In this document: piece after piece, positions 13,141 to 30,001 of the stretch
Position numbering within the stretch: position 1 is the stretch's first letter
Layout: each line of letters starts with the position of its first letter
Virus record (IMG/VR): IMGVR_UViG_3300031998_000005
DNA from: a virus
Taxonomy: Duplodnaviria > Caudoviricetes
Strand: one strand, 5' to 3'
Length of the DNA: 64,000 nt
Made by a program: the position numbers and the translations under genes
Notes under the pieces: model-generated
Seen by the model: the letters and a program-made list of their open reading frames with translations, nothing else
Told to the model about the DNA's origin: nothing
Database searches by the model: none

Positions 13141-14820
13141 TTAGAGTTCGGGTTCGGGCATACCCGCAGGGTTCGGGGCTTCACCAGGCTCGCCATCGGA
13201 TGTCAGTTCTTCACCACCACCCTCTTCACCACCTTCGGGAGAGTATTCCTGTTCCACTTGGTCAATCACGGAGTCTTCGTCTTCTTCGGAGTCGGCTTCA
13301 CCACCGTCGGCAGAACCGCCTTCGTCATCAGCGACAATCTGCGTGATAGCGTCAGCCAAGATACCGATGACGTTCATATTGTCTTCGTTCTTGTGGTAAG
13401 ACAAAGCGTTCTTCAAGGTCACGCAGGCTTCGCCAAGTTGCTTGAACGATTCCACTGCGTTCTTCACTGCGTCTTCGGCATAGATAACCTCGTCATCAAA
13501 CTCGCCTGCAAGGGCAGCGTCCTTGACGAGATTATCACAGCAAGTCAGCACGGACTTGGTAAGAACCTCAAATTTCTTGCCAAGGGAAACACGCTTTCTT
13601 GCGGTGTAGGATTCCACCACGATACCGACAACAGCAAAGGTTTCTTCCACATCCCCGAAAGTATCGGAAGCGTCAAGGGCTTCGTCTTCCAAGCCAAAGA
13701 ACAAGGACGTGAACGAATCCCAAAGAGAAGAAATCTTGTCTTTGAGCGTGGACACCAATTCTTTGAGTTTGTCAAGCAGACCCTCGGACACAAGCGATTC
13801 GCCCGCTTTCGGGAGTGAAGCGATGTCGCTCTTGGAAAGCGTAGAAAGGTTGGTCTTGATAATCTGTGTCGGAGTGGACGCTTCTTTCACAATCTGTTCA
13901 ATAAGGTCACGGAGTTCCTTGAACTGCTTGGGGTCTATGATGGCTTCTTCAAGTTTCGGAGCAGTTTCCAACATAGCGTTCATACGTTCAAGGACAGGGG
14001 TAAGGCTGTTCTTTGCGAACTTGTCCTTAACACCATAGGTAGCCCTAGTCACGGTCACAAGTTGAACCACATCGTCAGCGTCCATAAGACCATCAGCGAT
14101 ACTATCCTTGATAGTCTGTGCGTCCACTTCAATGGCTCGTTTGGCATTGTCCATCCAAGCGGTAACAACCTTGTCGCCACGGGTAGCATAACGGCTGTCA
14201 AGAACTGTCAGCAACTGCATAACATCGGGGATGTTAGCATAGTCGGCATACACGACTTTAAGGGCTTCTTTGAGAGCGTCTTCAATGTCGGCTGCCGCCT
14301 TGACTTCGGGCGACTTGTTGAACGAGATAGCGTCCTTGATACCCTTGACAGACTGCTGTTTGAGCAAGTCCACTTTCTCGGAGAACTCGTTGAGTTTCTT
14401 GATGGACGCTTCCAAATCTTCCTTGGACTGCTTGAGGTCTTCGGACTTGGCTTTCAAGTGCTTGCGATGTTCTTCAAGCACGTCCAGGATTTCGCCAAAG
14501 TTGCGGAGTTTGGACTTGTCCTTGATAGTGACCATACCCGCACCGAACTTGGACGCTTCGGACTTCTTGGATTCGTTATACATCTGCGAAAGTTTCTTTG
14601 CAAAGGCTTTCGGACTACCCGAACGAGCGTCCAAACCCACAATTCCGTGGTCGTTAGCATACATACCGATAATGCTTTGGGGATTACACCCTAATTTCCG
14701 CAATTCAGCATTAAGTTTATCCATCCAAATTTCGTCTTCACGATTTTCGGACTGCTTCCCGAACTTACGGGTCGGCTGCACCGATTCAGTAGTATGGTTC
14801 TTAATTGTCATCTTGGACAT
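13141..14820 (-). CDS. putative prohead core/internal protein, coiled-coil, with tag leader
   Basis: MSKMTIKNHTTES leader, NESKKSE linker, highly acidic C-terminus. Confidence 0.55.
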   Translation of the reverse strand: MSKMTIKNHTTESVQPTRKFGKQSENREDEIWMDKLNAELRKLGCNPQSIIGMYANDHGIVGLDARSGSPKAFAKKLSQMYNESKKSEASKFGAGMVTIKDKSKLRNFGEILDVLEEHRKHLKAKSEDLKQSKEDLEASIKKLNEFSEKVDLLKQQSVKGIKDAISFNKSPEVKAAADIEDALKEALKVVYADYANIPDVMQLLTVLDSRYATRGDKVVTAWMDNAKRAIEVDAQTIKDSIADGLMDADDVVQLVTVTRATYGVKDKFAKNSLTPVLERMNAMLETAPKLEEAIIDPKQFKELRDLIEQIVKEASTPTQIIKTNLSTLSKSDIASLPKAGESLVSEGLLDKLKELVSTLKDKISSLWDSFTSLFFGLEDEALDASDTFGDVEETFAVVGIVVESYTARKRVSLGKKFEVLTKSVLTCCDNLVKDAALAGEFDDEVIYAEDAVKNAVESFKQLGEACVTLKNALSYHKNEDNMNVIGILADAITQIVADDEGGSADGGEADSEEDEDSVIDQVEQEYSPEGGEEGGGEELTSDGEPGEAPNPAGMPEPEL

Positions 14821-15667: not shown

Positions 15668-17137
15668 TTAAAAGATTACGAGATAGTTCCCCTTTTCGTG
15701 CTTGTAGGCTTGTAGGTCGCCATCGTCAATAGCAGCCTCAATACATTCTTCCTTGCTCTTGGACTCGTCCTTGAACTTATCGTCAAGGTATTCGTCATAC
15801 ACCTCGTCAGCATCGCACCAAGCGGTGTATTGGAACAGGTTGTCAAAGAACCCGCAAGCGTCTTCAATTTCGCCCATTTCGGAGTAGTATTCCCACAGGG
15901 CATCCCAATAATCTTCGTTGTCATCAAGGTAGGCTGCGGACGCACACAGACGCATAAACATATTATAGTCTATGCCCATCATAATCTTGCCACCGACACC
16001 CTCGGATTTCTTACGGGATTCGTTCTGTCCGTGTTCTTCACGCCAATCATCCACAAGCGTAAAGCCCAAACGCAAAAGTTCATCATCTTCGGAAAGCGTA
16101 TCACGAATATCCGTGCCATACACCCCCATAAGATAATCTATCAAATCACCGCAATCTTCATCAGCAACGCACCTGTCCATCAGTTCTGCGAACTTGGGTT
16201 TCTTCCAATGGTTCTTATGAACATCTGCGTAAATCTTTTTTGCTTCGGGCAAAGTAAGATTATTGATAACTTCCTCGGATTTCTTATTTTCAGCAGTGTT
16301 TTTCATAGCACCTTTCTCCCTACAATACTTGCAAAGACCACCATAGCGGTCATAATCATACTCGGTCATAACCGCACCACAAGAGTCGCAGCGTTCCATA
16401 CTCTCTTTCTTGCCGTCCTTGCAGGATTCGGGTTTCTTGGATTCGCTCAACTCGCCACCCAAGACCTTTGCCAATTCTTCGGCGGCTTCCTTGTTAGGCA
16501 GATGAACGTAGAATATGTTTTCGTAATAGTAGTCGGCTCGTTCGTCACCGCCTTCTATCTTGATAGTAAATTCGGGGTCATCCTTTGCCTGGTCTTCATC
16601 AAAGACAATATCATCGCCCTCACCCTCATAGGTATAATACTTGGAGAGAACATCCACCACATCTTCAAGCACATACTCGGCATCGGCATACCCTATAAGT
16701 TCTTCAAAACCATCATAGGTTTCAATTTGAGTAGAACCCCTTTCGTTCTTCTTGGATTCGGACTTACCCGCCTGTTTCAAGCACTTGTCAATAAGCGGGA
16801 AGGGGTCAAAGTCACCAACGTGTCCGTCAGCCTCCCCTAGAACATCGCAATCAGCCGTGTCATATTGACACGTAAGCCAAGAGTGTCCGTTTTCCAAATC
16901 AGTGACAAGAGTCAGCATAAATTCAGTGTCGGGGGCCATTCCCTCGACATTCTTAATGCTGCAATGCCACTCGGCATATCCCTCGGAACCACCATCATTC
17001 CAAGCGTCAATCACATCGCCCTTGTCGCCAATCACAGACTGCACACAAGAACGAAATTCGGATTCAAGGTTCTGCCCATAGGCATTTCCGTATTCTTCCT
17101 GCCCATAGTCTCGTGCAAAATTTTTAATAGCGTTCAT
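15668..17137 (-). CDS. acidic multi-module polyprotein with ESKKxE linkers
   Basis: Linkers ESKKNE, ESKKPE, ENKKSE, ESRKKSE; includes a CxxC..CxxC module. Confidence 0.7.
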   Translation of the reverse strand: MNAIKNFARDYGQEEYGNAYGQNLESEFRSCVQSVIGDKGDVIDAWNDGGSEGYAEWHCSIKNVEGMAPDTEFMLTLVTDLENGHSWLTCQYDTADCDVLGEADGHVGDFDPFPLIDKCLKQAGKSESKKNERGSTQIETYDGFEELIGYADAEYVLEDVVDVLSKYYTYEGEGDDIVFDEDQAKDDPEFTIKIEGGDERADYYYENIFYVHLPNKEAAEELAKVLGGELSESKKPESCKDGKKESMERCDSCGAVMTEYDYDRYGGLCKYCREKGAMKNTAENKKSEEVINNLTLPEAKKIYADVHKNHWKKPKFAELMDRCVADEDCGDLIDYLMGVYGTDIRDTLSEDDELLRLGFTLVDDWREEHGQNESRKKSEGVGGKIMMGIDYNMFMRLCASAAYLDDNEDYWDALWEYYSEMGEIEDACGFFDNLFQYTAWCDADEVYDEYLDDKFKDESKSKEECIEAAIDDGDLQAYKHEKGNYLVIF

Positions 17138-17149
17138 CGTTATCTCTCC

Positions 17150-17842
17150 TTATGCGATATTGCCATCTTCAGTGAACTCGTATTCACGCCATTCAATTTC
17201 GTCCTTGATGTCATCATCGGACACTTCGTAGAACCAATCATAGCCGTCATCTCCAAACTGACTATCTATGTGACCCATAACATCACGAGCATAGGTTTCA
17301 AGTTCGTTCAACAAACCTATTTCGTCATCAGTCAGTTCCACGTCATAGTCGGGAACGACCTCAAGGCGGTCAGCCAACGAGTAGCCGTAACGATTGTTAT
17401 ACGCAAGGTCAATATCATAAATATCTGCCTTGTCGCACACAGCCTTGATAGCGTCCTTGTCCGAAAGGGGCTTGATGTTAGAACCCGTAAGCGGGTATTT
17501 AGACACGTCCGCATTCAGCAAATCATCTACACGCAATTTGCCGTAAGTATTAAACCCATCGCCCTGGGAATAGGACAGGGAATACTGCACTTTCAAATCG
17601 GAGTTCGGGAACAATTCATCAAGACACGTTACACACGAATCCGAGAACGTGGAGTAATCATCGCTACGAATACGCAGGATTTCTTCTTTCACTGCGTCCT
17701 TTGCCGTTTTCTTGGCTTCATCGGAAAGTTCATCGTAGGAATAAACGTCATAACTAGGCGGTTGAATCGTCCGCTTTTCGGAACGCTTATTCTTGGCGAG
17801 GCTTTCAATCTTCTTGTTCATAGAACACTTAAACTTTTTCAT
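17150..17842 (-). CDS. acidic phage protein (VYxYDELSDEAK...EYEFTEDG family) with CSMNKKIES leader
   Basis: Recognisable widespread phage/plasmid domain of unclear function. Confidence 0.65.
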   Translation of the reverse strand: MKKFKCSMNKKIESLAKNKRSEKRTIQPPSYDVYSYDELSDEAKKTAKDAVKEEILRIRSDDYSTFSDSCVTCLDELFPNSDLKVQYSLSYSQGDGFNTYGKLRVDDLLNADVSKYPLTGSNIKPLSDKDAIKAVCDKADIYDIDLAYNNRYGYSLADRLEVVPDYDVELTDDEIGLLNELETYARDVMGHIDSQFGDDGYDWFYEVSDDDIKDEIEWREYEFTEDGNIA

Positions 17843-17857
17843 AGTTCCGTCCTTTTA

Positions 17858-18292
17858 TTAAAGTTTAGACGCTGCCAAAGATACAGCCCCCGCAAGAGAA
17901 ACCATATCTTCCTTTCGTTCGTCCATAGCCTTCAGCAACTGACGGAGCGATGGAACACCCGCCAAACCGCTGTTACGATACATTTCCGCTTCGTCTTCGG
18001 GGTCAAAACCATCGGCATATTCTACAAGTTCGTCTGCCATCGCAGAAATGGTTTCAGCAAAATCTTCCCCTGCGTTCCACACCACAGAAAACGTAGCGTC
18101 ACCACCTGTAGAATAATCATAACCCGAAATCTCGGCACAGATTTCACCAGGACGATTTTCGGAAACATAAGCGGATTCAAACATCGTCCCCGCCTTTCCC
18201 ATCACACCTTCAAGCCAATCTCGGATAGCGTCATAATCGCTATAGGCTTCGTTCTTCTTGGATTCACGAACCTTAATCTTCATCTTGGACAT
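17858..18292 (-). CDS. tagged acidic cargo protein
   Basis: MSKMKIKVRESKKNE leader. Confidence 0.7.
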   Translation of the reverse strand: MSKMKIKVRESKKNEAYSDYDAIRDWLEGVMGKAGTMFESAYVSENRPGEICAEISGYDYSTGGDATFSVVWNAGEDFAETISAMADELVEYADGFDPEDEAEMYRNSGLAGVPSLRQLLKAMDERKEDMVSLAGAVSLAASKL

Positions 18293-18304
18293 AATATATT
18301 CTCC

Positions 18305-21300
18305 TTACACAAAGTAGAACAGGTTGGAACTACGGGCAGTAATCACATACTTTTTGCCCTCGTTATCACGGAGCAGGGCACCGTTCATTCCGTAAGTTCC
18401 ACGGCTCACACCGATGGTTTCAATGCCCTTCTTGCGGAGTGCCTTGGCTTCTTCATCGGAAATGGTCGTGATGTCTTCGGCTTGACCAAAACGAGCCATA
18501 TCTTTCAGTTCCTTCTGCTTCAAGGTAAGGCTCTCGGACTTCTTGGATTCATTTCTAGGGTCATACAAAATACTTGCACGATTAAGACTAGAAATAGGCA
18601 AACTAAATTCCTTACCTGTATCTACGGACTGACCCACAAATGTGCGAGGTTTTAGTTCACGAATATACTGCTTTACCCCATCAAGACTAATCATCATACC
18701 TACAACGAATTTAGTCTTGCCGTGCTTAAAATAGTCACCATCGCTATAACAATCCTTACAGAAAGCCCGATTACCCTCTCCCCAAATAGGGTCATCTGTG
18801 GGATTGCCACAGATAGAACAGATTACAGTTGCTTTCTCGGACTTCTTGGCTTCTTCCTTGCATTCGGGCAGATAGTCGCCTTGGAAAGTCTTGGTAGTAG
18901 CATAATACCACTTGCCGTCCTTATCGCCAAAGTAAGTCTGTCCAACAAGATTGCCGTTAATATCCATAGCATAGCCCGCAGTGTGGAGCCACTGCTTATT
19001 ACGAATATCGTTGAATTGTGCAGGCGTAGTAATCTCAACTGCGTCCAACGTCTTCATCTTGTTAATAAGGTCGGCACGGCTACGATACATACGATTACCC
19101 AACTTCTTCGGGGGCAAACCTTCGGTCTGCTTGCTTTCGTCATTAGCCTTGATGTCCTTGATTACAGACGGTCCATACTTTTGCAAGTAGGCGTGATAAT
19201 CGTCCATCGTCACGATTTCTTCGTAGGCACGACTATCCTTGTCAATAACATTAGTCACGGCTGTAGAAGCCCAACGCTTTAACTTTTCGGGCAGTCTGTC
19301 TTCAAACCAATCGTAGGCGACTTGCCACATAAAGTCAGTGTCTTCCTTGTCAATAGCGTCATCCTTGCCGTAGCCATAATACTTTTTCTTGGCTTCGGTC
19401 TGCTTGCTTTCGTTAGCAGGGTGTTCCGCAATCAACTTTTTAAGGTCGGCAGTAAGGTCATCCCACAGGTCTGTCAGTTTGTCTGCGGTGTAAGCCTTAT
19501 CCCACTCACGGATAACGCCAGGACCGATACCATCTTCATCAAAATCAAGAATATACGAAGCATTATCCGTAGTGCCATCATCGCAAATACCAAGAGCCAC
19601 AAGGACACCTGTGCCATCGGGCAACCACGTATAACATTCAACGTAATCGCTACTACCATTATCGCTATCCAAAGCCTCCGTATCATCAAGACCCAAATCA
19701 GCAAGAGTATTGCACAGGTCGCTGTATGCTTCGGAACCTTCTATTTCGGGGTCGCAATAGAAATAGTTTTTAAGTGTGTCGTGTCCGTATTGGTTCTTGG
19801 CTTCGGACGGCTTACCATCTGCGAAAACCTTGCGGTCAAGATAGAAACCCGCATCGCTAGGGTCATCTGCAAAAGAAGCGGAGTCGTTAGCCATTATCCA
19901 ATCGTTCAAAAGCCCCGCAGCCTTACTCACGCTACGTTCTTCATCGTAGTAAGTCGCCAACATATTGACGAAATGATTACCTTCTTTATCAGTAACAACC
20001 TTGCCACGCTTGGCAAGCCACTTGCTAAAATTCTTGATGTAGCGTTTACGCAATAACGCCATCACGTCCTTTTCAAACTTATCCGCTTCGGGGTCGGCAT
20101 CGTAGTTCACGAAATCGCCAACCTTGAACGTAGCGTCCGCTTCGTTCTTCTTGGTCTTATCGTCCTTACAATCCTTGCCCTTACAGCCCTTGTCATCGTC
20201 ATTACCCTCGGACTTACCGCCTTCGGAGTAAATGTCAAAATGCGGACTGCCGTTCACGCCATCCATAATAGCAACGTAGTCACCATCATCACTAGAACCT
20301 GTCAGTTCGCCATTGGCGAGTTTCTTGACAAGTTTTACGGCTTTATCGCCACCCTTATGGTCAGTAGTCAGCACTATAAGCATTTTAGGTTCACGACAAA
20401 GACCAAGCGGGATTTCTTCGCCATCAATAGACACATAGTCCTGGTCAAAGCAAGAGTCTACAAAGTCATTCAGCCTTTGCAAGTATTCGTCCATAGCATC
20501 GGGGTCTTCATCCCAATTCTCGCCATACTCGTCAATAATATCCTGCAACCTGTCTGCGGGGAGGTCAAGTTGCTCACAGGCTTCATCGTGGGTCATAACC
20601 TCGGCACCACGCCAAATATCTTCGTAGGCTTCGGACTTATCGCCCTTGGCGTAGTAGTCCATCTTGTTATCAAAGGCTGCGTATCGTGCTTTCTTGCGAT
20701 AGTCGGCAGTTGTCTGCTTGTCGCTAGACGAAGCCCAATAGATGTCAAACGAGTCGCCCACAATGTCGCCATTCGGCTTTTCCTGTTCGCCTGCCATAAC
20801 AATCACTTGCACAACGCCATCATCATCCTTGTAGGAATCAGCAAGTTCTTTCGCAGCATTGATAGCGTCATCTTCGTCATAGAAAGTTTTAGCCGCCTGC
20901 ATATCGTCCAAGCCTTCCTCATCGCCATCGGCATCAATGCGAGTAAGGTCCAGGGTGAAGATGTCCTTGTTGCCCTCGGCTTCGGACTTCTTGCTTTCAT
21001 CCTTTGCGTTAAGACCAAATGTTGAAGATATGCCCAAATCGTCATCAACGCAAAGGTCAAACCACTTCTTGCCAAAGGCTTTAAGGGCATCACGGTCATT
21101 GCCGTAAACATATACGGCTTTACCACCTGGAGGCAGTCGGGGGTCTTCACCCAAGTTGCGGGCGTATTCTGCACCCTTCGCAGCGTCTTCGTTAGACGTG
21201 AACACGATGACGAAGTAATCGGAGCCTTCGGCTTTATTAGACTCGGATTTACCACCAAGGACAGCATAAATCTTACTAACAAGTTCATCATCAAAATCAG

Positions 21301-22102
21301 CCCAATTAGTGCTTTCTCCCGTTTCGTCTTGAAACTCCACGGTGCCATCGCCCCAAACATTGACTTGTCCATAAGTGTGTCCGTCGTATTCAATCGGGTC
21401 AATCATAACTGCATCGGACGAGTCCCATTCAACTTCAATGCCGTCCTTATCACGATAGCAAGAGTTTTCGTCATCCCAAGTCCAACCCGCAGCCTTGGCA
21501 GCGTAGTGGTCCATATTATACTTGGCATAATCGTCAATAGACAGACCCTCGGACTTTTTGGATTCGTTAATAATAATACCCATAGCCTTAATATCGGGGT
21601 CATTCGCCATTTCTCTATGCAAATCAAACAAAGGCTTATACTTGTCTAACAGTTCTTTAGTAAACACGGAACCCATCGTAGAATACCCTGTATCGCCAAG
21701 CATAATCTCACCAAACTTGCCAAGAGAGTTTGAGCGTATTCGCAACTTACCACCAAGTTCTTTTGCTCTCTTACGATAAGCGTCCAACGTGGCTTCGGAC
21801 TTTTTGGATTCGTTAGACATAGACCAGAACCCGAAGTCCGCTCCATCGCCTTCGCTTGCACCAAAGTAGCAACCGTCGGGAGCGATTTCATTGAGCAAGT
21901 CAGTGAGTTCATCCACGACCCATCCCATAGTTTCATCGTCAAGGTTCTTCCAATCTTCAACTTCGGGATTTTCCTTGATATATTTGTCATACTTATCCTT
22001 GCCGTAGGTCTTCAAGACACCAAGGAATTTCGGGATAAGGTCATCGGATTTGAGAGTTCCACTAGACACGGAACGGTCACGCAAGTCTTCAATGTTTGCC
22101 AT
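18305..22102 (-). CDS. 1265-aa polyprotein of about 12 small domains joined by ESKKSE/ESKQTE-type linkers
   Basis: 4x ESKKSE, 2x ESKQTE, plus ESNKAE, EAKKSE, KKNE and KSE variants, spaced about 80-150 aa apart. Confidence 0.8.
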   Translation of the reverse strand: MANIEDLRDRSVSSGTLKSDDLIPKFLGVLKTYGKDKYDKYIKENPEVEDWKNLDDETMGWVVDELTDLLNEIAPDGCYFGASEGDGADFGFWSMSNESKKSEATLDAYRKRAKELGGKLRIRSNSLGKFGEIMLGDTGYSTMGSVFTKELLDKYKPLFDLHREMANDPDIKAMGIIINESKKSEGLSIDDYAKYNMDHYAAKAAGWTWDDENSCYRDKDGIEVEWDSSDAVMIDPIEYDGHTYGQVNVWGDGTVEFQDETGESTNWADFDDELVSKIYAVLGGKSESNKAEGSDYFVIVFTSNEDAAKGAEYARNLGEDPRLPPGGKAVYVYGNDRDALKAFGKKWFDLCVDDDLGISSTFGLNAKDESKKSEAEGNKDIFTLDLTRIDADGDEEGLDDMQAAKTFYDEDDAINAAKELADSYKDDDGVVQVIVMAGEQEKPNGDIVGDSFDIYWASSSDKQTTADYRKKARYAAFDNKMDYYAKGDKSEAYEDIWRGAEVMTHDEACEQLDLPADRLQDIIDEYGENWDEDPDAMDEYLQRLNDFVDSCFDQDYVSIDGEEIPLGLCREPKMLIVLTTDHKGGDKAVKLVKKLANGELTGSSDDGDYVAIMDGVNGSPHFDIYSEGGKSEGNDDDKGCKGKDCKDDKTKKNEADATFKVGDFVNYDADPEADKFEKDVMALLRKRYIKNFSKWLAKRGKVVTDKEGNHFVNMLATYYDEERSVSKAAGLLNDWIMANDSASFADDPSDAGFYLDRKVFADGKPSEAKNQYGHDTLKNYFYCDPEIEGSEAYSDLCNTLADLGLDDTEALDSDNGSSDYVECYTWLPDGTGVLVALGICDDGTTDNASYILDFDEDGIGPGVIREWDKAYTADKLTDLWDDLTADLKKLIAEHPANESKQTEAKKKYYGYGKDDAIDKEDTDFMWQVAYDWFEDRLPEKLKRWASTAVTNVIDKDSRAYEEIVTMDDYHAYLQKYGPSVIKDIKANDESKQTEGLPPKKLGNRMYRSRADLINKMKTLDAVEITTPAQFNDIRNKQWLHTAGYAMDINGNLVGQTYFGDKDGKWYYATTKTFQGDYLPECKEEAKKSEKATVICSICGNPTDDPIWGEGNRAFCKDCYSDGDYFKHGKTKFVVGMMISLDGVKQYIRELKPRTFVGQSVDTGKEFSLPISSLNRASILYDPRNESKKSESLTLKQKELKDMARFGQAEDITTISDEEAKALRKKGIETIGVSRGTYGMNGALLRDNEGKKYVITARSSNLFYFV

Positions 22103-22117
22103 AATGCTAACCTGTCG

Positions 22118-22264
22118 TTAAAAATTGGGAATAAAGTCGGGGAGAACATCGCCCTTGAAGTTCCCCTCCCACAATGCGTCATCACGCTCGTCTTTCGGTG
22201 CATACATCGCAAGGACGTATGACAAGTAGTTATACGAAGACGGCTTTTCAGTTTCTTCTGCCAT
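22118..22264 (-). CDS. small hypothetical protein (48 aa, MAEETEKPSS...)
   Basis: Translated by hand; fills the gap; GGAG upstream. Confidence 0.5.
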   Translation of the reverse strand: MAEETEKPSSYNYLSYVLAMYAPKDERDDALWEGNFKGDVLPDFIPNF

Positions 22265-22270
22265 AGGACA

Positions 22271-22495
22271 TTACTCCATTTCCGAAGTGTCCACATTGAA
22301 CACAATCTTGCCGTGGCAATCGGGAGTGTCCCAGATGTTGTCAATGGACATAATTTCAAGTTCTTGGTATTCATACGACATATCGTCATATTCGCCATCA
22401 AAGATTTCTTCAGCGTTGCCGTCCTTCAAGTCCACCAACACTACTCGTTGCATCCCTGCGTCTGCAAACAAATCCATAACGTCACTGACTGTCAT
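22271..22495 (-). CDS. small acidic hypothetical protein
   Basis: 74 aa, AGGGAG RBS. Confidence 0.65.
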   Translation of the reverse strand: MTVSDVMDLFADAGMQRVVLVDLKDGNAEEIFDGEYDDMSYEYQELEIMSIDNIWDTPDCHGKIVFNVDTSEME

Positions 22496-22569
22496 AGGAA
22501 AACTCCCTTGTTAAAGATATTTGTCAATAAAAATAATAAAATTTTTTGCCTTGCGAACAAATACATAAT

Positions 22570-22605
22570 AAAAAAGCACCCCCGCCATAAGGCAGGGGCA
22601 CTTTT
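22570..22605 (-). terminator. terminator after major capsid gene
   Basis: GC-rich hairpin (CCCC-GCC/GGC-GGGG) with a T6 run nearby on the minus strand. Confidence 0.55.
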
Positions 22606-22628
22606 CAAAGGTTCACACCTTTTACGGA

Positions 22629-24275
22629 TTAGCCGTTGCTTCCGCTACCGCTACCACCATTCGGGGTGGAGGTAAGGAACACATTGACATCCGCAGCGGG
22701 GTCGGCATCCTTGGTGATGACGATACGCTGAACGAACTCGGCAACCACAGGTTCAATCGCCTTCCAAGAAGCGATAGCACGCTGCTGTTGGAACGGGTTT
22801 TCGGCAACCTGCATAGTGTCGGTGAGGAACACCGGCATATAGGTAGCACAGACCACAGGTGCTTCAAACGGAGAGTTATCACTGCTGTAAGCACAGATAA
22901 CTTCGTTCGGAGCAACGATGGCGTTGGAACGGATAACCGTGATGCCTTCGTTTTCAAGAGTGCCATACACGTGCGGGCCAACGAGGTTGGTCTGCGGTGC
23001 AAGACGGAAACCAGGCAGAGAAGCGATATACTGACAAGCGACATAGCCCGCCACAATCTTGTTGGCGTGACCCTTACCCGCACGGCTACCGATGGCGGCA
23101 GATGCAGCCTGGATAGTGTAAAGGAAGGACTGACGATGTTCAAATTCGCTGATACCAGGAGTCTTGTTGAGATTCCAAGTAATCGGCTTCCACTTGTTAG
23201 CACACTTGACGTATGCGGCAAGAATCTTCTCGCTTTCAGCCATCGCCATATGACCCGTAAGGTCAGCGAGAACTTCATCACTTGCAGCCTTGCCGAAACG
23301 CTTGTTGAACTGGAAGGACTTGAACGTGCCCATCATTTCCTTAAGACCGATGATTTCAGCAGAAACCACCTTGGAGTCAAGGGAGTATTCAATAGCAGGA
23401 ACGTCCGGTGCCTTTTCAAAGTCCACATCATAAGTCACGCCACCCTGGTAGCCACTCGGAATAGTGAGAACGAGGTCACCACCATCCTGTGCAGCAGTCA
23501 CAGCAACCTTGCCGTAGAAAGTCGGCAACTGACCAGGACCGCCACAGACACCAACGATGTCTTCAACCTTGCCATCCTTGTCCACAAGACGCACGTTAAT
23601 CGGCATATTCCAACGGAGATTGCCGACACCATACTTGATGGTAGCCTTGCCGTCTGCAGCGATGACAAACTGACGTTCGGACATATAGCCCGTCGGAGAA
23701 GCCTGCCAACCCTTGAGAGCGTTGAACGTGATAGCGTCAAAGTTCTTGGCTGCGAGAGTGGCAGCGTCCAAATCGCCTTCGCCACTATCAGCAGGGCGAC
23801 CACGAGTGTCCAACCACTTCTTCCAAGCACCCGCAAAGGTCTTGTCGCCTTCAAACTTGCCGTCAGCGTCCATCCAGCGGTCTTCGGGGAGAGTCGGCAG
23901 ACCATTCTGTGCGGTCAGCGGATAGCCGTGGGTAAAGGTCTTCTTAAAGTAAATCAGACCCTGGGATTCATCAAGCGTCTGCACACTAGCCAACTGCGGA
24001 GCGATGGAGAGTGCGTAAGTGGCACTGATAAGGTCAAGAGCCACACGGGGGAGAACGCCAAGGCTAGAAGCCGAGGAGTTTTCGTTCACGTAGGATTCGT
24101 AACGCTTATAGTTGTCCATCTGCTGACCCAAGTTGTAGCGGGCGGTAGCAGAAAGAGTGCCCTTAAAGGACGGGGATTTAGCAAGTGCTTCAAACTGCTT
24201 GCTATAACGAGCATCGTAGGATTCTACGAGGCGGTTGAATTTCTGGTTAGACATTTCTTCAACGGAAGTCTTCAT
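22629..24275 (-). CDS. major capsid protein (T4 gp23-like)
   Basis: LASVQTL..SQGLIYFKK, vSAEiigLK, EVLADL..EsekIL, PVVCATYMPV; predicted propeptide cleavage at VNE65; strongly biased codon use. Confidence 0.92.
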   Translation of the reverse strand: MKTSVEEMSNQKFNRLVESYDARYSKQFEALAKSPSFKGTLSATARYNLGQQMDNYKRYESYVNENSSASSLGVLPRVALDLISATYALSIAPQLASVQTLDESQGLIYFKKTFTHGYPLTAQNGLPTLPEDRWMDADGKFEGDKTFAGAWKKWLDTRGRPADSGEGDLDAATLAAKNFDAITFNALKGWQASPTGYMSERQFVIAADGKATIKYGVGNLRWNMPINVRLVDKDGKVEDIVGVCGGPGQLPTFYGKVAVTAAQDGGDLVLTIPSGYQGGVTYDVDFEKAPDVPAIEYSLDSKVVSAEIIGLKEMMGTFKSFQFNKRFGKAASDEVLADLTGHMAMAESEKILAAYVKCANKWKPITWNLNKTPGISEFEHRQSFLYTIQAASAAIGSRAGKGHANKIVAGYVACQYIASLPGFRLAPQTNLVGPHVYGTLENEGITVIRSNAIVAPNEVICAYSSDNSPFEAPVVCATYMPVFLTDTMQVAENPFQQQRAIASWKAIEPVVAEFVQRIVITKDADPAADVNVFLTSTPNGGSGSGSNG

Positions 24276-24293
24276 AATGTCTTCTCCTTATGG

Positions 24294-24860
24294 TTAGGCT
24301 TTCTTGCCAATTTTGGAACGGAATTTCGCACGGGCTTCGTTGCAAGCCTTTTTACGGGCTTCGGCAGAACCCTGCTTGGATTCAGCCTTCTTCGCAGCAC
24401 GGCGGGCTTCAAGACGCTTGCGGAACGCTTCTGCACGAGCCTCATTACGGGCGGGAGCAGTAGCCTTGTTAGCAGAACGTCTGGCTTCAAGACGCTTGCG
24501 GAATGCTTCGCGGCGGGCAGCCTTGCGGGATTCTTCTGCGTCCTTGGGTTCTTCGCTACCTTCAACAGACGCAGAACCGAGAACTTCCTCTTCTTCCACA
24601 TCTTCCTTGGAGTTAGTGAGAACAGCGACAGTCACCGAGTTTTCGTTTTCCGGGTCGGGAGAAACGACAACCTGGATGTCCTTGTCTTCATCAGCGAAAA
24701 CGACTTCCGTTTCAGCAGCGTCCAACTTAACGTCGCCAACTTCAACGATGTTGTCATCTTCACGGAGTTTCTTTTCGGCTCTACGGGCTTCAAGACGCTT
24801 GCGGAAAGCAAGAGTGCGAGCCTCGTTGCGAGCAGAGATAGAGCGTTTGTGAGTAACCAT
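24294..24860 (-). CDS. scaffold / prohead core protein
   Basis: Start moved to MVTHKRS (24860, AAGGAG RBS); directly upstream of the capsid gene; 3x AFRKRLEARR around an acidic core. Confidence 0.65.
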   Translation of the reverse strand: MVTHKRSISARNEARTLAFRKRLEARRAEKKLREDDNIVEVGDVKLDAAETEVVFADEDKDIQVVVSPDPENENSVTVAVLTNSKEDVEEEEVLGSASVEGSEEPKDAEESRKAARREAFRKRLEARRSANKATAPARNEARAEAFRKRLEARRAAKKAESKQGSAEARKKACNEARAKFRSKIGKKA

Positions 24861-25046
24861 AATAATGGTCTCCTTGTTAGGGTTCTTGTTTTTTCTAGTG
24901 AAGCGGGAAACCCGCTCTCCTACAAGGGTTAATTTGTGCGTAATGCACGAATTGGCAGGGAAATTGCCTACCCTTTGACAACAGAATATAATAAAAAAAT
25001 TATGCGATTTCGCAAAAATCGCAAAGAAAATGTCAAAAAATGTCAA

Positions 25047-25091
25047 ATATAACAAGATACCTAATTCTACGTTGTAGGTAATTTGTTATAT
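25047..25091. promoter_or_regulatory. inverted pair of the ATATAACAARWTACCTA box (N11 spacer)
   Basis: ATATAACAAGATACCTA-attctacgttg-TAGGTAATTTGTTATAT, upstream of scaffold/capsid. Confidence 0.7.
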
Positions 25092-25141
25092 AAGGTAGAT
25101 ATAGTATTATATTTATTTTGTATGTAATCCTGTGTGCATAC

Positions 25142-25170
25142 AAAAAGAGTTCCGATTGCTCGGAACTCTC
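25142..25170 (-). terminator. rho-independent terminator
   Basis: GAGTTCCGA-N4-TCGGAACTC followed by a T-run. Confidence 0.75.
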
Positions 25171-25200
25171 TTGATGATTTTGTCGTAATTGGAATACGGG

Positions 25201-26607
25201 TTAATCCTCTTCGGACCAAATTTTACGAGCGTATTCAGTTGCTTCCGCAGAACCAAAAGGAGAGCCATCCAAAGGACTACCACTCAACACGCCATCCACC
25301 CATTCTGCAAATTCATCGGCAGTTCCAGAATAACCACCAAAGCCATCCAATTCTCGCATAATGGCATACTTACCAACGATTTCGGCGGCATCAGCATCGT
25401 TAATCACAAAGTCATCGTTAGTATGCGACAAGATTTCATCACATACTGTATCTAATGCGGTTTCTGCGTTAGATACAACAAAGTGCGAAAGGCTACTCTC
25501 GTTCTTCTTGGAAACACTCTCTTTCTTCTTCTGCATAGAACAGATGTTGGACTTGCTTTCAAAACTACCCCAACCCGTTGCAGGAGTCAGTCCACTAGGA
25601 ACATCAAAGCCCTTTTCCTTAACAATCTTAATAAGTTCGGGCATATCTTGGGGGCATTCTGCCATCGCCAACCGCAGGGTATTATTAACCTGGGCTTGAT
25701 TACGAGGATTCCAATTTTTGAACATCGGGTGCATTTCTTGTAGTTTGGCAAGGCTTTCCTTCTTCTTCTGCATAGAACAGGTGTGCTTCTTGGCTTCCTT
25801 CTTCTTGGATTCATCCACATAAACAGCATTATACGGACCCATTTCCTTACCCGTAGCACCACGATAAATCATAGACAAGTCATCACGGAAACCAAATCCA
25901 GGATGCTTAAAGCCACTACCGTCTTCAGCCGTTGCACGATGACGACCGTTCTTCCAAGAATAGTTCATAATGAACTTACCGTTAGAAGTCACATCCACGG
26001 AGTCATTATCCTTCATCGTAATCTTTATCCCCATTGTGGGATATGCCTTACTGTAATAGTCCTCGTAGTCCTTCCAAAACTGCGGATTACGCCAACAAGA
26101 CATCTTACCAAAATCGGGATAGTTCTGGTGAATGTCATACAACATAAACATCTTTTCGTTTTTCTTGGCTTCCTTCTTCTTGGACTCCATCAAATCCAAA
26201 GCAGTAGTCCCTTCCTCGTTCGGCTCGCCATACTTCTTCCAAATGGCTTGGGCTTCATCGTTATACCACTTGACATCAAAATTGTCATCGGTATAAACAA
26301 CCTTGCCAACCGCCATATCGGTGTCCCAAACTTCGCCCGACTTTTCATCATAGGGCATATAGAAGTCGGAGTAGTCCATCACCATCAGATTGCGATGCTT
26401 ATAGCCAATCTTGGAACAAAGGGTGTAGCCGTCCTGCTGATACAGGTCTTCTTCTTCATCGTAGCCCTCGCCCCAACCCATAACGAAACACAACTCGGTC
26501 CCGTCATCAGTTGTTTCAAGAGTCTTCCACCACACCACCGAACCCGATGTAGTAAGGGTCTTGATAGCGGTGTTAAAGTCCTTTCCTGTAATCTTCTTCA
26601 GTGCCAT
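25201..26607 (-). CDS. four-module polyprotein with ESKKKE and CSMQKKKES linkers
   Basis: 2x ESKKKEAKK, 2x CSMQKKKES. Confidence 0.75.
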   Translation of the reverse strand: MALKKITGKDFNTAIKTLTTSGSVVWWKTLETTDDGTELCFVMGWGEGYDEEEDLYQQDGYTLCSKIGYKHRNLMVMDYSDFYMPYDEKSGEVWDTDMAVGKVVYTDDNFDVKWYNDEAQAIWKKYGEPNEEGTTALDLMESKKKEAKKNEKMFMLYDIHQNYPDFGKMSCWRNPQFWKDYEDYYSKAYPTMGIKITMKDNDSVDVTSNGKFIMNYSWKNGRHRATAEDGSGFKHPGFGFRDDLSMIYRGATGKEMGPYNAVYVDESKKKEAKKHTCSMQKKKESLAKLQEMHPMFKNWNPRNQAQVNNTLRLAMAECPQDMPELIKIVKEKGFDVPSGLTPATGWGSFESKSNICSMQKKKESVSKKNESSLSHFVVSNAETALDTVCDEILSHTNDDFVINDADAAEIVGKYAIMRELDGFGGYSGTADEFAEWVDGVLSGSPLDGSPFGSAEATEYARKIWSEED

Positions 26608-26626
26608 AATACACCTTTCCTTTGCC

Positions 26627-27298
26627 TTATTCGGCTTCTACGTTAATTTCCTTATATCCGTCCTTGAACGAATAAGTTTCAAACTGCTTTTTGACTTCTG
26701 CCAAGAACTTATCCGCATTCGCCTGCGTCATCTGTTCTTCGGTCAATTTCATAACCACATCCAGGTCATCTTCGGGATGGCGACCATAGGTATAGTCAAA
26801 ACTGCGACTAATACGCCCGTGAAGTGTATGTTCACGCCCAAAGTTGTAAAGCCAAATCTCGGCATAAGCGAAAATCTCGCAACCTTCGCTCCACCACTGA
26901 TTTTCAAAGTCGTAGAAGTCATCGGAACGGAGGTCGCATTCCACGCCTTCCTTCTCGCATTGTTCCTTGTAGGCATCTTCGCACTGCTCCTGCAAGTAAT
27001 CGTAGTCCTTGTCAATCTTGTCATCTGCGTAGCCTTGACCGACAATGTTGTAGGAAGTGGTCATCCAAGTCTTTTTAACACCGCCATCGTTGTGGGAGAT
27101 ATATCCGCTGTAATCATCACGCTCAATATCTTCCACACCATCACCTAGTTCATACCAGGCATCACACATACCGCCACAAGACTGATTCACGTCATAGTTT
27201 TCAAGGATTTCGGTAGCCCCGTCCTTGATAAAACTATCGTAGAACTTCGCCCCTGCGGAACCGCTAGACTCGTGAACTCGGATTTTCATTTTAGACAT
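26627..27298 (-). CDS. tagged acidic cargo protein
   Basis: MSKMKIRVHES leader. Confidence 0.7.
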   Translation of the reverse strand: MSKMKIRVHESSGSAGAKFYDSFIKDGATEILENYDVNQSCGGMCDAWYELGDGVEDIERDDYSGYISHNDGGVKKTWMTTSYNIVGQGYADDKIDKDYDYLQEQCEDAYKEQCEKEGVECDLRSDDFYDFENQWWSEGCEIFAYAEIWLYNFGREHTLHGRISRSFDYTYGRHPEDDLDVVMKLTEEQMTQANADKFLAEVKKQFETYSFKDGYKEINVEAE

Positions 27299-27342
27299 AG
27301 GACTACTCTCCTTAAATCTTTCTCAATGCTGAAATATACATT

Positions 27343-28323
27343 TTATTTTTCAGTGAACTTGGACAGGTCGGCAGAACAAATCTCGTAAGTGCCCAAGTTG
27401 TAGTGGACTTTATCGCCCGAAGGCTTGACAATGCCCAACTCGGCAAGTTTCTGCAACAGCCTGCCGTCCATACTAGAACTTGCAAAAAATTCATTAGTGT
27501 CTAACGAATACCCAGGCAAGCACACAGAAACATCCGTATAAATCTCGCCATCGTCACACTCGGCAATCAAGGCAATACCATTCGTCATAGCGTATTGTTC
27601 CAAGCGGACCGTGAGATTATTTTCTTCCCCATAGGCTTTATACGTGAAATACTCCGTCCGCTTGCCGATAGGCAACTTACTCTTGCGAGCCTCGGCTACG
27701 CCTTCTTCAACCTTGTATTTGTTATACATTTCAATGGTCCACTGCTCGGCTTCTTCAACCGATGTGGTTTCCTTGATTTCACTACCATTAAAGTTTTCTG
27801 CAACATTGAACGTGAAAACACTTGCACTCAAACACACTTCCGCATCGGGAGAATACCAAGCGTCTACGACACCTGGAATGTCCGCAAGGTCGTTAATGTC
27901 GGACAACGAGCCAAACAATTCCCAATCCTTGCCGTTGCTATCCGCAGCAATCTGCTGCAAGGCATCACGGATAGATTCAACATCCACAAAAGCCACAAGT
28001 GCAGGAGCGGACGGCAAAACCGCCTTCTTGTATTCCTCCTGCATAACCTTTTCAACTTCTTCCCTGCTCGGACGGTCCTTAAAGGCAACCATAAGGTAAT
28101 TATCCTTTACGGTAGCCCTATCCACGTCAAGGGATATGTTTTCAATATCCCAAGCCACATCGGGGTCAAAATCCTCGGTGCCCTTGAATACCGCAAGTGC
28201 GTGTGCGGTATAACAAGACGGCAAGAAATCCCCAATTTCGTTCTTCAAGGACTGGGGAAGAAACAGGCTTTCGGCTTCCTGTTTCTTGCTCTCGTGCAAA
28301 CGGATAGACAATTTCTTGGACAT
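27343..28323 (-). CDS. tagged cargo protein with C-terminal DUF4313-like domain
   Basis: Start moved to MSKKLSIRLHES; C-domain (Y..NGIAL...YTDVSVCLP...L.ELGIVKPSG..Y) fits the DUF4313 pattern. Confidence 0.65.
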   Translation of the reverse strand: MSKKLSIRLHESKKQEAESLFLPQSLKNEIGDFLPSCYTAHALAVFKGTEDFDPDVAWDIENISLDVDRATVKDNYLMVAFKDRPSREEVEKVMQEEYKKAVLPSAPALVAFVDVESIRDALQQIAADSNGKDWELFGSLSDINDLADIPGVVDAWYSPDAEVCLSASVFTFNVAENFNGSEIKETTSVEEAEQWTIEMYNKYKVEEGVAEARKSKLPIGKRTEYFTYKAYGEENNLTVRLEQYAMTNGIALIAECDDGEIYTDVSVCLPGYSLDTNEFFASSSMDGRLLQKLAELGIVKPSGDKVHYNLGTYEICSADLSKFTEK

Positions 28324-28338
28324 TGTGATACACTCCAA

Positions 28339-28614
28339 TTACTTATATTTTTCCAACTGCTGAAAGACATAACTAAACGCATCGTTAATGCGTTCCTGCT
28401 TTCGGGCGAGATTTTCCGCAATTTCAGTAGCAGTGCCATACGCAGAATCGGCAGCACCATCTTGAATGTCTATAATACTCCCCCAAAGGGATTCTATGGG
28501 AGAGCGACTACCGATGATAGCAGAAATGTCTTTAAGTTCATCCTGCAAATTTTCAAACTCGCCCTGCAAGGACTCGTTGCTTTCGTGCAAACGGATAGAC
28601 AACTTTCTAGGCAT
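28339..28614 (-). CDS. tagged small helical cargo protein
   Basis: MPRKLSIRLHES leader. Confidence 0.65.
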   Translation of the reverse strand: MPRKLSIRLHESNESLQGEFENLQDELKDISAIIGSRSPIESLWGSIIDIQDGAADSAYGTATEIAENLARKQERINDAFSYVFQQLEKYK

Positions 28615-28617
28615 ACC

Positions 28618-29655
28618 TTAACCTCCAAGGATGTAAGAAATCAGGCTGCCATCATTGGCTTCGTCCTTCTTGATAGCCTTGGCTTCCAAGACCTTGAACG
28701 TCTGCGGTGCAGGCTGTTCACGCTCAATGCTTTCGTAAGTAGCACCCGCCTTGCGACGCTCCTTAACGTAATCTTCATTAAGCCCGTTCTTGTTGGCGAA
28801 TTTCAACTCACGGATAGTTTCTTCGGACATCTTGATTTCTTCCTGCAAGTCTTCCACGAACTTGACGATAGACTGCTTGATGTCCTCGGTCACCTCGGTA
28901 AAGTCTTCAAACTTATACGTGTCGTTAGAGCCGTCATCGCAGTTGGACATTTCACAGCCGTTCTTGTCAAGGCTTTCAACGATGTAGGTGCTTCCGTCAA
29001 GTTCAACGGGTGCCCCAAGTTCGTTAGCCAAGGAAAGCAGGCTTTCAGCAACACGTTCGTTCACGGATTCTTCAAGGGCTTCCTTCTTCTTGGATTCCGA
29101 AATAACCTTGGGCTGTGCGTCAAGGAAACCAGGGTCTTGAACAAAGTCAAAGCGTTCAAGTTTGTAAGTCTTGGGGTCAAGAATGTCGTTGCCATCTTCG
29201 TCCTTGCCTTCGTAGTCGCCATCGGCACGGGAACTGACATACATCGTAGTTCCTGCACGGAGAATGGTGTAAAGGGTCTTACCCATATCCGTATTGTAGA
29301 TGACCGATTCAGCAATGCCCGTCTTCCAATCAATGTTGCGGGTAATATGGGAGAACTTGCCCTCGGCAATATCTTCGTCAGTGATTTCGGCTTCGTGTCC
29401 GATACGACCGAACATCTGTCCGTTCTTGAGTTTGCGTTGCACATCTTCGTCTTGACCCGCAACTTCCCAAAGTTCTTCGGTGTAAAGACGATGATTACGG
29501 CTTACCTTGCCAGGGCAGAAATGCTGACCCTTGACAATGGCGAGAATAGTGCCGCCGCTCTTGGCAACCTCGGATTGAGCGGACTCGTCCACACGGGCAA
29601 TATCGTCCACGAACTCGCACTTAAACGGGATATAATCTTCTGCAATTTTCTGCAT
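28618..29655 (-). CDS. prohead core protease (T4 gp21-like)
   Basis: SRNHRLY, GRIGH (catalytic His), SHI, TDMGKTL, VSSRADG (catalytic Ser), FDFVQDPGF; ESKKKE after the domain. Confidence 0.92.
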   Translation of the reverse strand: MQKIAEDYIPFKCEFVDDIARVDESAQSEVAKSGGTILAIVKGQHFCPGKVSRNHRLYTEELWEVAGQDEDVQRKLKNGQMFGRIGHEAEITDEDIAEGKFSHITRNIDWKTGIAESVIYNTDMGKTLYTILRAGTTMYVSSRADGDYEGKDEDGNDILDPKTYKLERFDFVQDPGFLDAQPKVISESKKKEALEESVNERVAESLLSLANELGAPVELDGSTYIVESLDKNGCEMSNCDDGSNDTYKFEDFTEVTEDIKQSIVKFVEDLQEEIKMSEETIRELKFANKNGLNEDYVKERRKAGATYESIEREQPAPQTFKVLEAKAIKKDEANDGSLISYILGG

Positions 29656-29704
29656 AGTAAACTAACCTTCCTTATCTACAATAGGTGTAAATGCTACCAC
29701 AAGT

Positions 29705-30001
29705 TTATTCCTTGTAATCCATAATCTGCCTAATAAGGGCATCTGCCCATTCATCCATCGGGATTTCATCAAAAGACGAACCCCATACATCGGAGTAGAA
29801 CTCATTACTAGGTAAATCATTCATCACGTTGTTAATAAGTTTACCAAACGGACCGCTATTAAAAGAACCTAGACCTAGCATCAGTGTCCACCATCCCTCA
29901 CGTATTTTTTCAACGGCACGGATAAGGTCTTCTTTAGATTTTGGTTTTTCAAAATCTTCGTTCTGCTTGGTTTCGTGAACCTTGATAGTCATTCTACCCA
30001 T
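29705..30001 (-). CDS. tagged cargo protein, paralog of 31637..31942
   Basis: MGRMTIKVHE leader. Confidence 0.65.
   Translation of the reverse strand: MGRMTIKVHETKQNEDFEKPKSKEDLIRAVEKIREGWWTLMLGLGSFNSGPFGKLINNVMNDLPSNEFYSDVWGSSFDEIPMDEWADALIRQIMDYKE

Follow-up and report, generated by a model that had tools for sequence, protein, structure and literature searches.

How whole protein domains can be gained, lost and exchanged inside genes is the question raised by a 64,000-nucleotide (nt) stretch of viral DNA (the window; IMG/VR virus record IMGVR_UViG_3300031998_000005). The source record is a virus of 215,686 bp, judged 99% complete, from an uncultured T4-like jumbo phage, and by its gene content the region studied is the head-morphogenesis module of this phage. 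Three polyprotein genes around the capsid gene are built of ∼100-residue modules, here called cargo modules, joined by the linker E-S-K-K-x-E or by the tag C-S-M-Q-K-K-K-E-S. A preliminary description had noticed perfect direct repeats at these joints, and had proposed that modules are gained or lost in frame by linker duplication or microhomology recombination. This proposal is supported by the junctions found in relatives and by the co-variation of the repeat copies that flank a module. With a probability of about 0.72, recombination at the linker repeats, presumably driven by DNA homology, exchanges whole in-frame cargo modules, which would be cut apart by the head protease, packaged and ejected.

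Exact direct repeats encode the joints between modules

The largest of the three genes (18305..22102, minus strand) encodes a 1265-residue cargo polyprotein of 12 modules (m1-m12), which has no N-terminal leader and ends in a constant C-terminal module, m12. The second (15668..17137, minus strand) encodes a 489-residue cargo polyprotein of about 5 modules, also with a constant C-terminal module, and the third (25201..26607, minus strand) a 468-residue cargo polyprotein with modules A-B-C-D.

The genes that carry the repeat pairs, and hence the pairs themselves, read on the minus strand. Seven pairs proved to be exact and maximal as first described, and a general repeat finder recovered all of them independently. 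Within the 1265-residue polyprotein, a 21-nt pair (21549-21569 / 21795-21815; spacing 246 nt) encodes N-E-S-K-K-S-E and brackets m2, a second 21-nt pair (19120-19140 / 19393-19413; 273 nt) encodes E-S-K-Q-T-E and brackets m9, and a 15-nt pair (18532-18546 / 18835-18849; 303 nt) encodes K-K-S-E and brackets m11. One module of the 489-residue polyprotein is bracketed by a 14-nt pair (16000-16013 / 16273-16286; 273 nt). In the 468-residue polyprotein, a 23-nt pair (25787-25809 / 26162-26184; 375 nt) encodes S-K-K-K-E-A-K-K and brackets module B, and a 21-nt pair (25523-25543 / 25760-25780; 237 nt) encodes the C-S-M-Q-K-K-K tag and brackets module C. The last, a 20-nt pair (28292-28311 / 28583-28602; 291 nt), encodes L-S-I-R-L-H-E. 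Every spacing is divisible by 3. Each pair had been said to flank exactly one module; this is true of six pairs, but the 28292/28583 pair represents the leaders of two adjacent genes around a 91-residue gene body.

Exact direct repeats of at least 13 nt, 30-1500 nt apart, number 22 in the whole window. The long in-frame ones are confined to positions 16000-28602, except for three copies in a scaffold-like gene at 24403-24806. The seven pairs lie inside open reading frames and encode linker or leader; none has the form of an intergenic promoter with a stem-loop terminator. A regular-expression scan of the window found the canonical linker 18 times on the minus strand and 0 times on the plus strand, always between 14557 and 29974; the scaffold-like gene has a 19th match, which does not represent a linker.

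Homology between relatives breaks at the repeats

Relatives were collected by capsid-protein scans of IMG/VR and metagenome contigs (82-99% capsid identity; designated by L numbers). Protein searches gave 125 homologues with the 1265-residue query and 99 with the 468-residue query, and DNA was fetched for six. The structural genes align at 80-98% nucleotide identity, and the cargo genes are mosaics. A second scan of the viral contigs, with a capsid alignment, added nothing to the six loci of the first. When relatives were aligned across the repeats, presence/absence breakpoints appeared where they had been predicted (L012, L019, L023): at the clean junctions, a relative tracks the upstream context of the window and, within the shared linker tract, changes to the downstream one. 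Relatives show module presence/absence or homology ends at six of the seven pairs. For four of these six, exactly the bracketed module is missing, and for m2 and m9 the support is indirect.

In L012 (AUXO010139105.1), whose capsid protein is 99% identical and whose shared DNA is 90-98% identical to the window, the orthologue of the 468-residue protein has 270 residues. It has ESKKKE-(S)KK and CSMQKKK once each and lacks B and C, and the context change falls within the ESKKKEAKK and CSMQKKK repeats; P0129 also has one copy and lacks B. L019 lacks m11 between the 15-nt repeats, with the context change inside the repeat, and in P0008, P0012 and P0040 m10 is joined straight to m12. L023 lacks 16013-16274 between the 14-nt repeats, where two alignments of only 82-85% identity overlap by 11 nt, and it also lacks m2-m4 between two ESKKSEA linkers. 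An insertion/deletion (indel) of m9 separates L022 from L019 and L020, which L022 equals minus m9, and the crossover lies in AAGCAGACCGAAG. The window's own 21-nt m9 pair is backed solely by homology ends at 19133 (L022) and at 19122 and 19401 (L024), m9 of L024 matching 19122-19401 within a different context. For m2, homology ends at 21795 (L019, L020, L022) and at 21549 (L024, in which m2 is 96% identical and stands in another context); a clean m2-only indel was not found among the relatives examined.

The 28292/28583 leader pair operates at the level of genes and has a patchy mosaic history with no simple indel. Its copies belong to the 91-residue gene (28339..28614, minus strand; leader MPRKLSIRLHE), which was not found in any fetched relative, and to the 326-residue gene (27343..28323, minus strand; leader MSKKLSIRLHE, then SKKQE). 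In L012 and L021 the 326-residue gene has a mosaic leader that is nearer to the copy of the window's 91-residue gene. In L012, an extra 132-residue gene lies between two leader-region copies, upstream of the position of the 223-residue gene (26627..27298, minus strand; leader MSKMKIRVHE); the single leader copy of the window at this place is upstream-like before the leader and downstream-like after it.

The location of homology ends was then evaluated with 14 strictly defined linkers and the 42 ends of alignments (at least 85% identity) that fall within the three polyprotein genes. Ends lay within 15 nt of a linker in 22 of 42 cases (52%), as against 6.3% expected; in 10,000 randomisations the proportion never exceeded 23.8%. 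Almost all of the remaining ends were at weaker linkers (GDKSE, GGKSE, KSESNKAE and NESRKKSE).

Such a distribution could in principle be left by selection as a mere filter: illegitimate recombination would occur anywhere, the survivors would be those in frame with whole domains, and the repeats would be a by-product of the conserved peptide. Very short shared tracts fit this explanation, such as the crossover of about 4 nt by which L022 lacks m6, or the 6-7 nt in the L012 orthologue of 30006-31625, and so does the weakness, in most relatives, of the similarity between adjacent linkers (see below). On the other hand, most clean junctions switch inside a 13-23-nt identical tract at nucleotide precision, gene-level cassettes behave alike at the leader repeats, non-coding upstream sequence included, and lineage-specific synonymous variants that occur in both flanking copies (AAA in the window, TCG in L021) are not predicted by a filter. 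We consider this explanation unlikely, although selection for in-frame, domain-preserving products must contribute beside homology.

Cassettes were also seen outside the three polyproteins. The L012 orthologue (L012:3-1838) of the 539-residue protein encoded at 30006-31625 has an extra module of ∼175 residues, which sits after ...RKT-ESKKNE, at the place where the window reads ...GRKNE followed by KPTE, with only K-x-E microhomology on both sides. Even a conserved, larger head-module protein thus accepts cassettes.

Copies that flank a module share synonymous variants

Since the linker is a stereotyped peptide, its DNA might be alike for trivial reasons. The repeats could be just the codon-biased encoding of a conserved peptide, with stable module content and with length variants that are assembly chimeras. 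The high use of GAA (81%) and AAG (76%) raises chance identity, and the data consist entirely of metagenome assemblies. To separate neighbours from the rest, 17 canonical linkers were compared as codon-aligned 30-nt strings. The longest in-register exact run averaged 11.4 nt between neighbouring linkers and 8.4 nt for all pairs (permutation p=0.00035), and 19.3 of 30 nt were identical between neighbours, compared with 18.1 for all pairs (p=0.018). Where the residue was the same, the codon was identical in 70/88 (80%) adjacent and 415/608 (68%) non-adjacent comparisons. With genome-wide codon usage, identical codons for a repeated peptide are expected by chance with a probability of 0.002-0.065 per pair. 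Codon bias therefore does not fully account for the repeat identity, and the adjacency effect is real in the window, where it rests mainly on three pairs. Neighbouring linkers do match at synonymous positions beyond codon bias, as had been claimed, but the companion claim that distant ones differ was overstated: the distant linker 14557-14574 matches 21794-21811 at 25/30 nt, and is as near to it as its own neighbour is. The impression that enclosed modules are richer in A+T was borne out for total G+C content (0.430, compared with 0.472 in other cargo modules; Mann-Whitney p=0.0002), but at third codon positions the difference was not significant (0.45 and 0.50; p=0.14).

Assembly offers no better explanation. 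The repeats (14-23 nt) are shorter than the usual word sizes of assemblers. The 1265-residue and 468-residue proteins each occur on two contigs from different sources, and the short 270-residue form (P0129) belongs to a seven-member cluster found on at least 16 contigs. Because the repeats are shorter than assembler words and both forms exist on independent contigs, the length variants are unlikely to be artefacts. Together with the permutation result and a module content that differs in almost every relative, this leaves codon bias with stable modules as an extremely improbable account.

The nature of the shared variants is informative. In the window, AAC GAA TCC AAA AAG TCC GA stands at both sides of m2, and its AAA codon is window-specific; the single m1 linker of the relatives has AAG AAA or AAG AAG. 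In L024, m2 is flanked by two differing linkers, DESKKNE and GESKKSE, and in L021 the rare TCG codon is present in both linkers around m11. Since the flanking copies share lineage-specific synonymous variants, linkers do not travel with the module; it is the resident linker that ends up on both sides. This co-variation suggests duplication of the resident linker or gene conversion.

Modules form a large set and recur in many orders

The window protein and 120 homologues of the 1265-residue protein comprise 666 modules, which fall into about 170 families (85 of them singletons) and 116 architectures. Identical module content among relatives would speak against gain and loss, but the content differed in almost every relative. 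When the 120 homologues were compared all against all with no motif supplied, alignment starts piled up on E-S-K-K-S-E. Modules of the window have full-length matches elsewhere that directly abut one another, and they recur in other orders, in other genes and even across the capsid gene. Common families have 7-15 different right-hand neighbours, and tandem duplications were found (P0006 compared with P0016; P0131). Modules B and C recur in other relatives, sometimes straight after an N-terminal tag, and B in P0123 carries an identical linker peptide at both sides. P0145, a module B homologue, is encoded by a 223-kb contig that was deposited as part of a Bacteroidaceae metagenome-assembled genome. 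The contig probably represents the phage, placed in one bin with its host, and gives no more than a weak indication of the group to which the host belongs.

Constancy is restricted to certain positions. In the 468-residue polyprotein, A is present in 89/99 homologues and D in 23/99, and the middle is variable. The two largest polyproteins, both leaderless, have constant C-terminal ends, m12 in the first and the GVGGKIMMGIDY... module in the second. Of the 121 proteins, 71 end in m12, and direct BLAST detected it in 116/120 homologues. The constant C-terminal module may anchor or target the polyprotein chain. The same joint connects other proteins: the module of the 223-residue gene stands behind an ESKKSE linker within longer proteins of L003 and L004, and the conserved head protein (13141..14820, minus strand) has a variable N-terminal part, of 88 residues in the window and about 33 in L003, that ends in ESKKSE and is followed by a conserved part.

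No module could be assigned to a known family. None of 22 single modules reached the threshold in Pfam, with sub-threshold zinc-ribbon-like matches for m11, which has zinc-ribbon-like CxxC pairs, and for one small module; PHROGs returned families of unknown function only. The 326-residue gene product gave a weak match to DUF4313, under the cut-off. Modelled alone, m12 has a predicted fold with a predicted local distance difference test (pLDDT) score of 89.5, and this high confidence fits autonomous domains; in a Foldseek search of m12 against the PDB nothing scored below E=0.077. An AlphaFold model of m9-m12 was poor (mean pLDDT 51, with 12 near-identical sequences as input). It had confidence troughs at residues 102-116 and 183-202, on the two linkers, to which we give little weight.

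The linker as a candidate protease site

A prohead protease of the S77 / gp21 family is predicted at 28618..29655 (minus strand) by its match to PHROG 207 'head maturation protease' (E=1.6e-21); the Pfam match to PF03420 (E=2.5e-4) is under the cut-off of that family. A gp21-family (S77) protease and a gp23-type capsid protein are thus present in one head module. In the protease itself, ESKKKE occurs at the end of the catalytic domain, before a C-terminal part of 153 residues, and in the 13141-14820 head protein ESKKSE marks the boundary of the variable N-terminal part and the conserved body. Leader and linker can also interchange before one module: L008 reads MSNKKFKITVKE followed by SKKSE-GLPP..., and the window reads ...KANDE followed by SKQTE-GLPP... 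Proteases of the gp21/SPN3US group all cut after Glu (PMC5694885, PMC10052503). From the linker position in the protease and the head protein, the interchange of leader and linker, and the Glu cutting of the group, we infer that the linker E-S-K-K-x-E is a cut site of the prohead protease. Its products would be internal head proteins of the phage, packaged and probably ejected.

Several single-module genes start with a leader of 10-12 residues that ends in hydrophobic-x-Glu, for example MSKMKIKVRE and MSKKLSIRLHE, and leaders in T4 have 10-20 residues (PMC5694885, PMC10052503). The start M-x(1-6)-[IL]-x-[IVLMT]-x-E was found in 40/185 open reading frames of the window and its relatives, a count of pattern matches only. 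In SPN3US, Ser is favoured after the cut, and the C-terminal part of the protease is removed (PMC5694885, PMC10052503).

Possible routes of exchange

How could the repeats promote exchange? If one peptide is needed at each joint, 12-25 nt of near-identical DNA in the same frame would be present at every module boundary. Recombination between two such patches would delete, duplicate, insert or swap whole modules with the frame kept, whether the two lie in one genome, in sister genomes or in relatives that infect together. The agents could be the phage's own RecA/UvsX-type machinery or template switching. The resident linker would come to stand on both sides of the incoming module through template switching, or through paired crossovers at the edges next to the module, and gene conversion between the two copies would be an alternative route to matching flanks; perfect repeats might then be the footprint of recent resident-linker copying, or of such conversion. 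Most products could be viable, as each module would work alone once cut free, and the number of possible combinations would be very large.

Outside the window, a 455-residue open frame (G000:C1:50545-51333) matches RecA (PF00154, 43 bits), and is likely to encode the UvsX-type recombinase of the phage. No tyrosine or serine recombinase (PF00589, PF00239) was found in the 99%-complete genome, and positive controls worked. A RecA-family protein together with the absence of such recombinases makes general recombination or copy-choice more likely than a site-specific system. A dedicated, integron-like system would recognise linker DNA and excise and integrate module cassettes. The cassette-like behaviour, and the duplication of the resident linker around m2, which resembles a target-site duplication, are what such a system would produce. 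Yet besides the missing recombinase, crossover points vary within the linker, ESKKSE, GDKSE, CSMQKKK and leaders all serve, and a structured site was not seen; we regard this possibility as very improbable.

We therefore return to homologous exchange at the linker repeats, against which several observations weigh. Selection for in-frame, domain-preserving products would likewise concentrate junctions at linkers, and we infer, rather than observe, that DNA homology causes the exchange and does not merely mark survivable junctions. At some junctions no more than 4-13 nt are shared, a short tract for recombination by strand exchange, so that microhomology events also occur. A recurrent homology end at 20088 lies inside module m7, off any linker. 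The rare modules m4, m7 and m8 have no perfect flanking repeats and occur in 1, 2 and 4 of 120 homologues; the bracketed modules are not clearly rarer, with m2 in 1, m11 in 9 and m9 in 19 of 120. Among the seven relatives in which it could be assessed, the adjacency effect reached significance in L004 alone (p=0.0016); it was marginal in L008 and L021, and L003, L019, L020 and L022 did not show it. Because it is weak or absent in most relatives, perfect flanking repeats are an occasional state and no rule. Finally, cutting at the linker is not assured, since three positions before its last Glu it has Lys or Gln and not a hydrophobic residue; the leaders have a hydrophobic residue at that place, and so do the T4 cleavage sites ITE and LTE (PMC5694885).

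Other features of the head-gene region

The major capsid protein of the gp23 family is encoded at 22629..24275 (minus strand; Pfam PF07068, 38.8 bits, above the cut-off). Its nearest deposited relatives are T4-like phages, with 25-34% identity in tblastn matches to their capsid proteins, and a megablast search of the region against deposited phage genomes gave no match, only distant capsid homologues being present there. In this protein V-N-E65, followed by N-S-S, is invariant; its hydrophobic-x-Glu form is that of the leaders and not of the linker. T4 gp23 loses 65 N-terminal residues, so that capsid residue 65 may be a maturation site.

Directly upstream of the capsid gene, a 188-residue protein (24294-25055, with a likely start near 24860) is conserved in all relatives and is probably the scaffold. 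The three exact repeats of 21-23 nt in its gene (24403-24425 / 24483-24503 / 24784-24806) encode AFRKRLEARR, and the resulting three R-L-E motifs, each followed by A, could be protease sites, judging from their sequence. Between the capsid gene and the 1265-residue polyprotein gene (22102-22628), a G+C-rich hairpin followed by a T run comes after the capsid gene, and two small genes (74 and 48 residues in relatives) precede the polyprotein; they are kept in close relatives. Open frames of 600-700 codons on the opposite (plus) strand, at 16865-18655, 22788-24932 and 27595-29724, are most likely a by-product of the codon composition of the coding strand and not genes.

Comparison with known systems

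In the literature searched, we found neither protease-linker polyproteins nor in-frame shuffling at their joints described. If the cargo is ejected from the head, its modules would be among the first weapons that the phage brings into the cell; in T4, each of the three internal proteins blocks one restriction enzyme of the host (PMC12373910). A standard joint would permit in-frame exchange of whole modules, and almost every natural relative has a different set. Through this organisation anti-host functions could turn over fast, by a route that is concrete and open to test. The about 170 small autonomous domains of unknown function could serve as a screening catalogue, and the arrangement as a natural blueprint by which a single gene could supply several proteins to a capsid.

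By analogy, the closest functional system is that of the T4 internal proteins with their capsid targeting sequence (IPI-III, Alt; PMC3012670, PMC5694885, PMC12373910). Both have a gp23-type capsid, a gp21-family protease, and short hydrophobic-x-Glu leaders on unrelated small proteins beside the head genes, and in both the set is highly diverse with the leader alone in common. In contrast to T4, the phage described here fuses many modules into polyproteins through a second stereotyped peptide, E-S-K-K-x-E, as read from its sequence, and its two largest polyproteins are leaderless with a constant C-terminal module. Giant phages SPN3US and phiKZ (A/S/G-x-Glu cuts; PMC10052503, PMC5694885) have a related protease that cuts after Glu with Ser favoured next, makes multiple cuts per protein and removes its own C-terminal part. 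Their head and ejection proteins lose long propeptides, and are not swappable module arrays with a repeated linker.

Polyvalent proteins (Iyer et al. 2017, PMC5512222) are similar in that many unrelated domains share one polypeptide among virion genes, and they are thought to enter with the DNA and to be split into units (PMC5512222). They carry known conflict domains and often an MPTase peptidase, neither of which was detected here (Pfam, 22 modules). The proteins described here have instead a single stereotyped linker, on which the head protease probably acts in trans, and ∼100-residue modules of unknown family. In the gp38 adhesins of T-even phages (PMC3157838), conserved short (glycine-rich) motifs within a gene also delimit interchangeable (hypervariable) segments, but gp38 has a set number of segments in a set order, and its single fold requires all of them, whereas here 1 to 12 modules occur, each apparently an autonomous domain.

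The closest evolutionary system, again by analogy, is the PeSL-mediated modular shuffling of T4-type phages (Arbiol et al. 2010, PMC2839356; PMC4122927). There too, short conserved repeats surround variable cassettes, and in closely related phages a cassette may be inserted, deleted or replaced, the crossover lying within the repeat; one hybrid repeat stays after loss. In our data the crossover likewise fell within the flanking repeat for B, C, m11, m2-m4, m9, 16013-16274 and the 132-residue gene. PeSLs are an intergenic promoter plus stem-loop and move whole genes, whereas here a coding in-frame repeat would move protein modules, or genes by way of leaders. One may tentatively extend the parallel, to a reading that we hold to be less likely than not: the linker would be under double selection, as protease cut site and as in-frame recombination site, the clade would re-assort a pool of >100 injected modules, and the perfect repeats would be footprints of excised and re-inserted module-plus-linker intermediates, the coding counterpart of PeSL mini-circles. 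This analysis contributes a nucleotide-level view of junctions between near-identical relatives, together with the co-variation of flanking copies, in which the linker appears both as a peptide joint and as a recombination seam.

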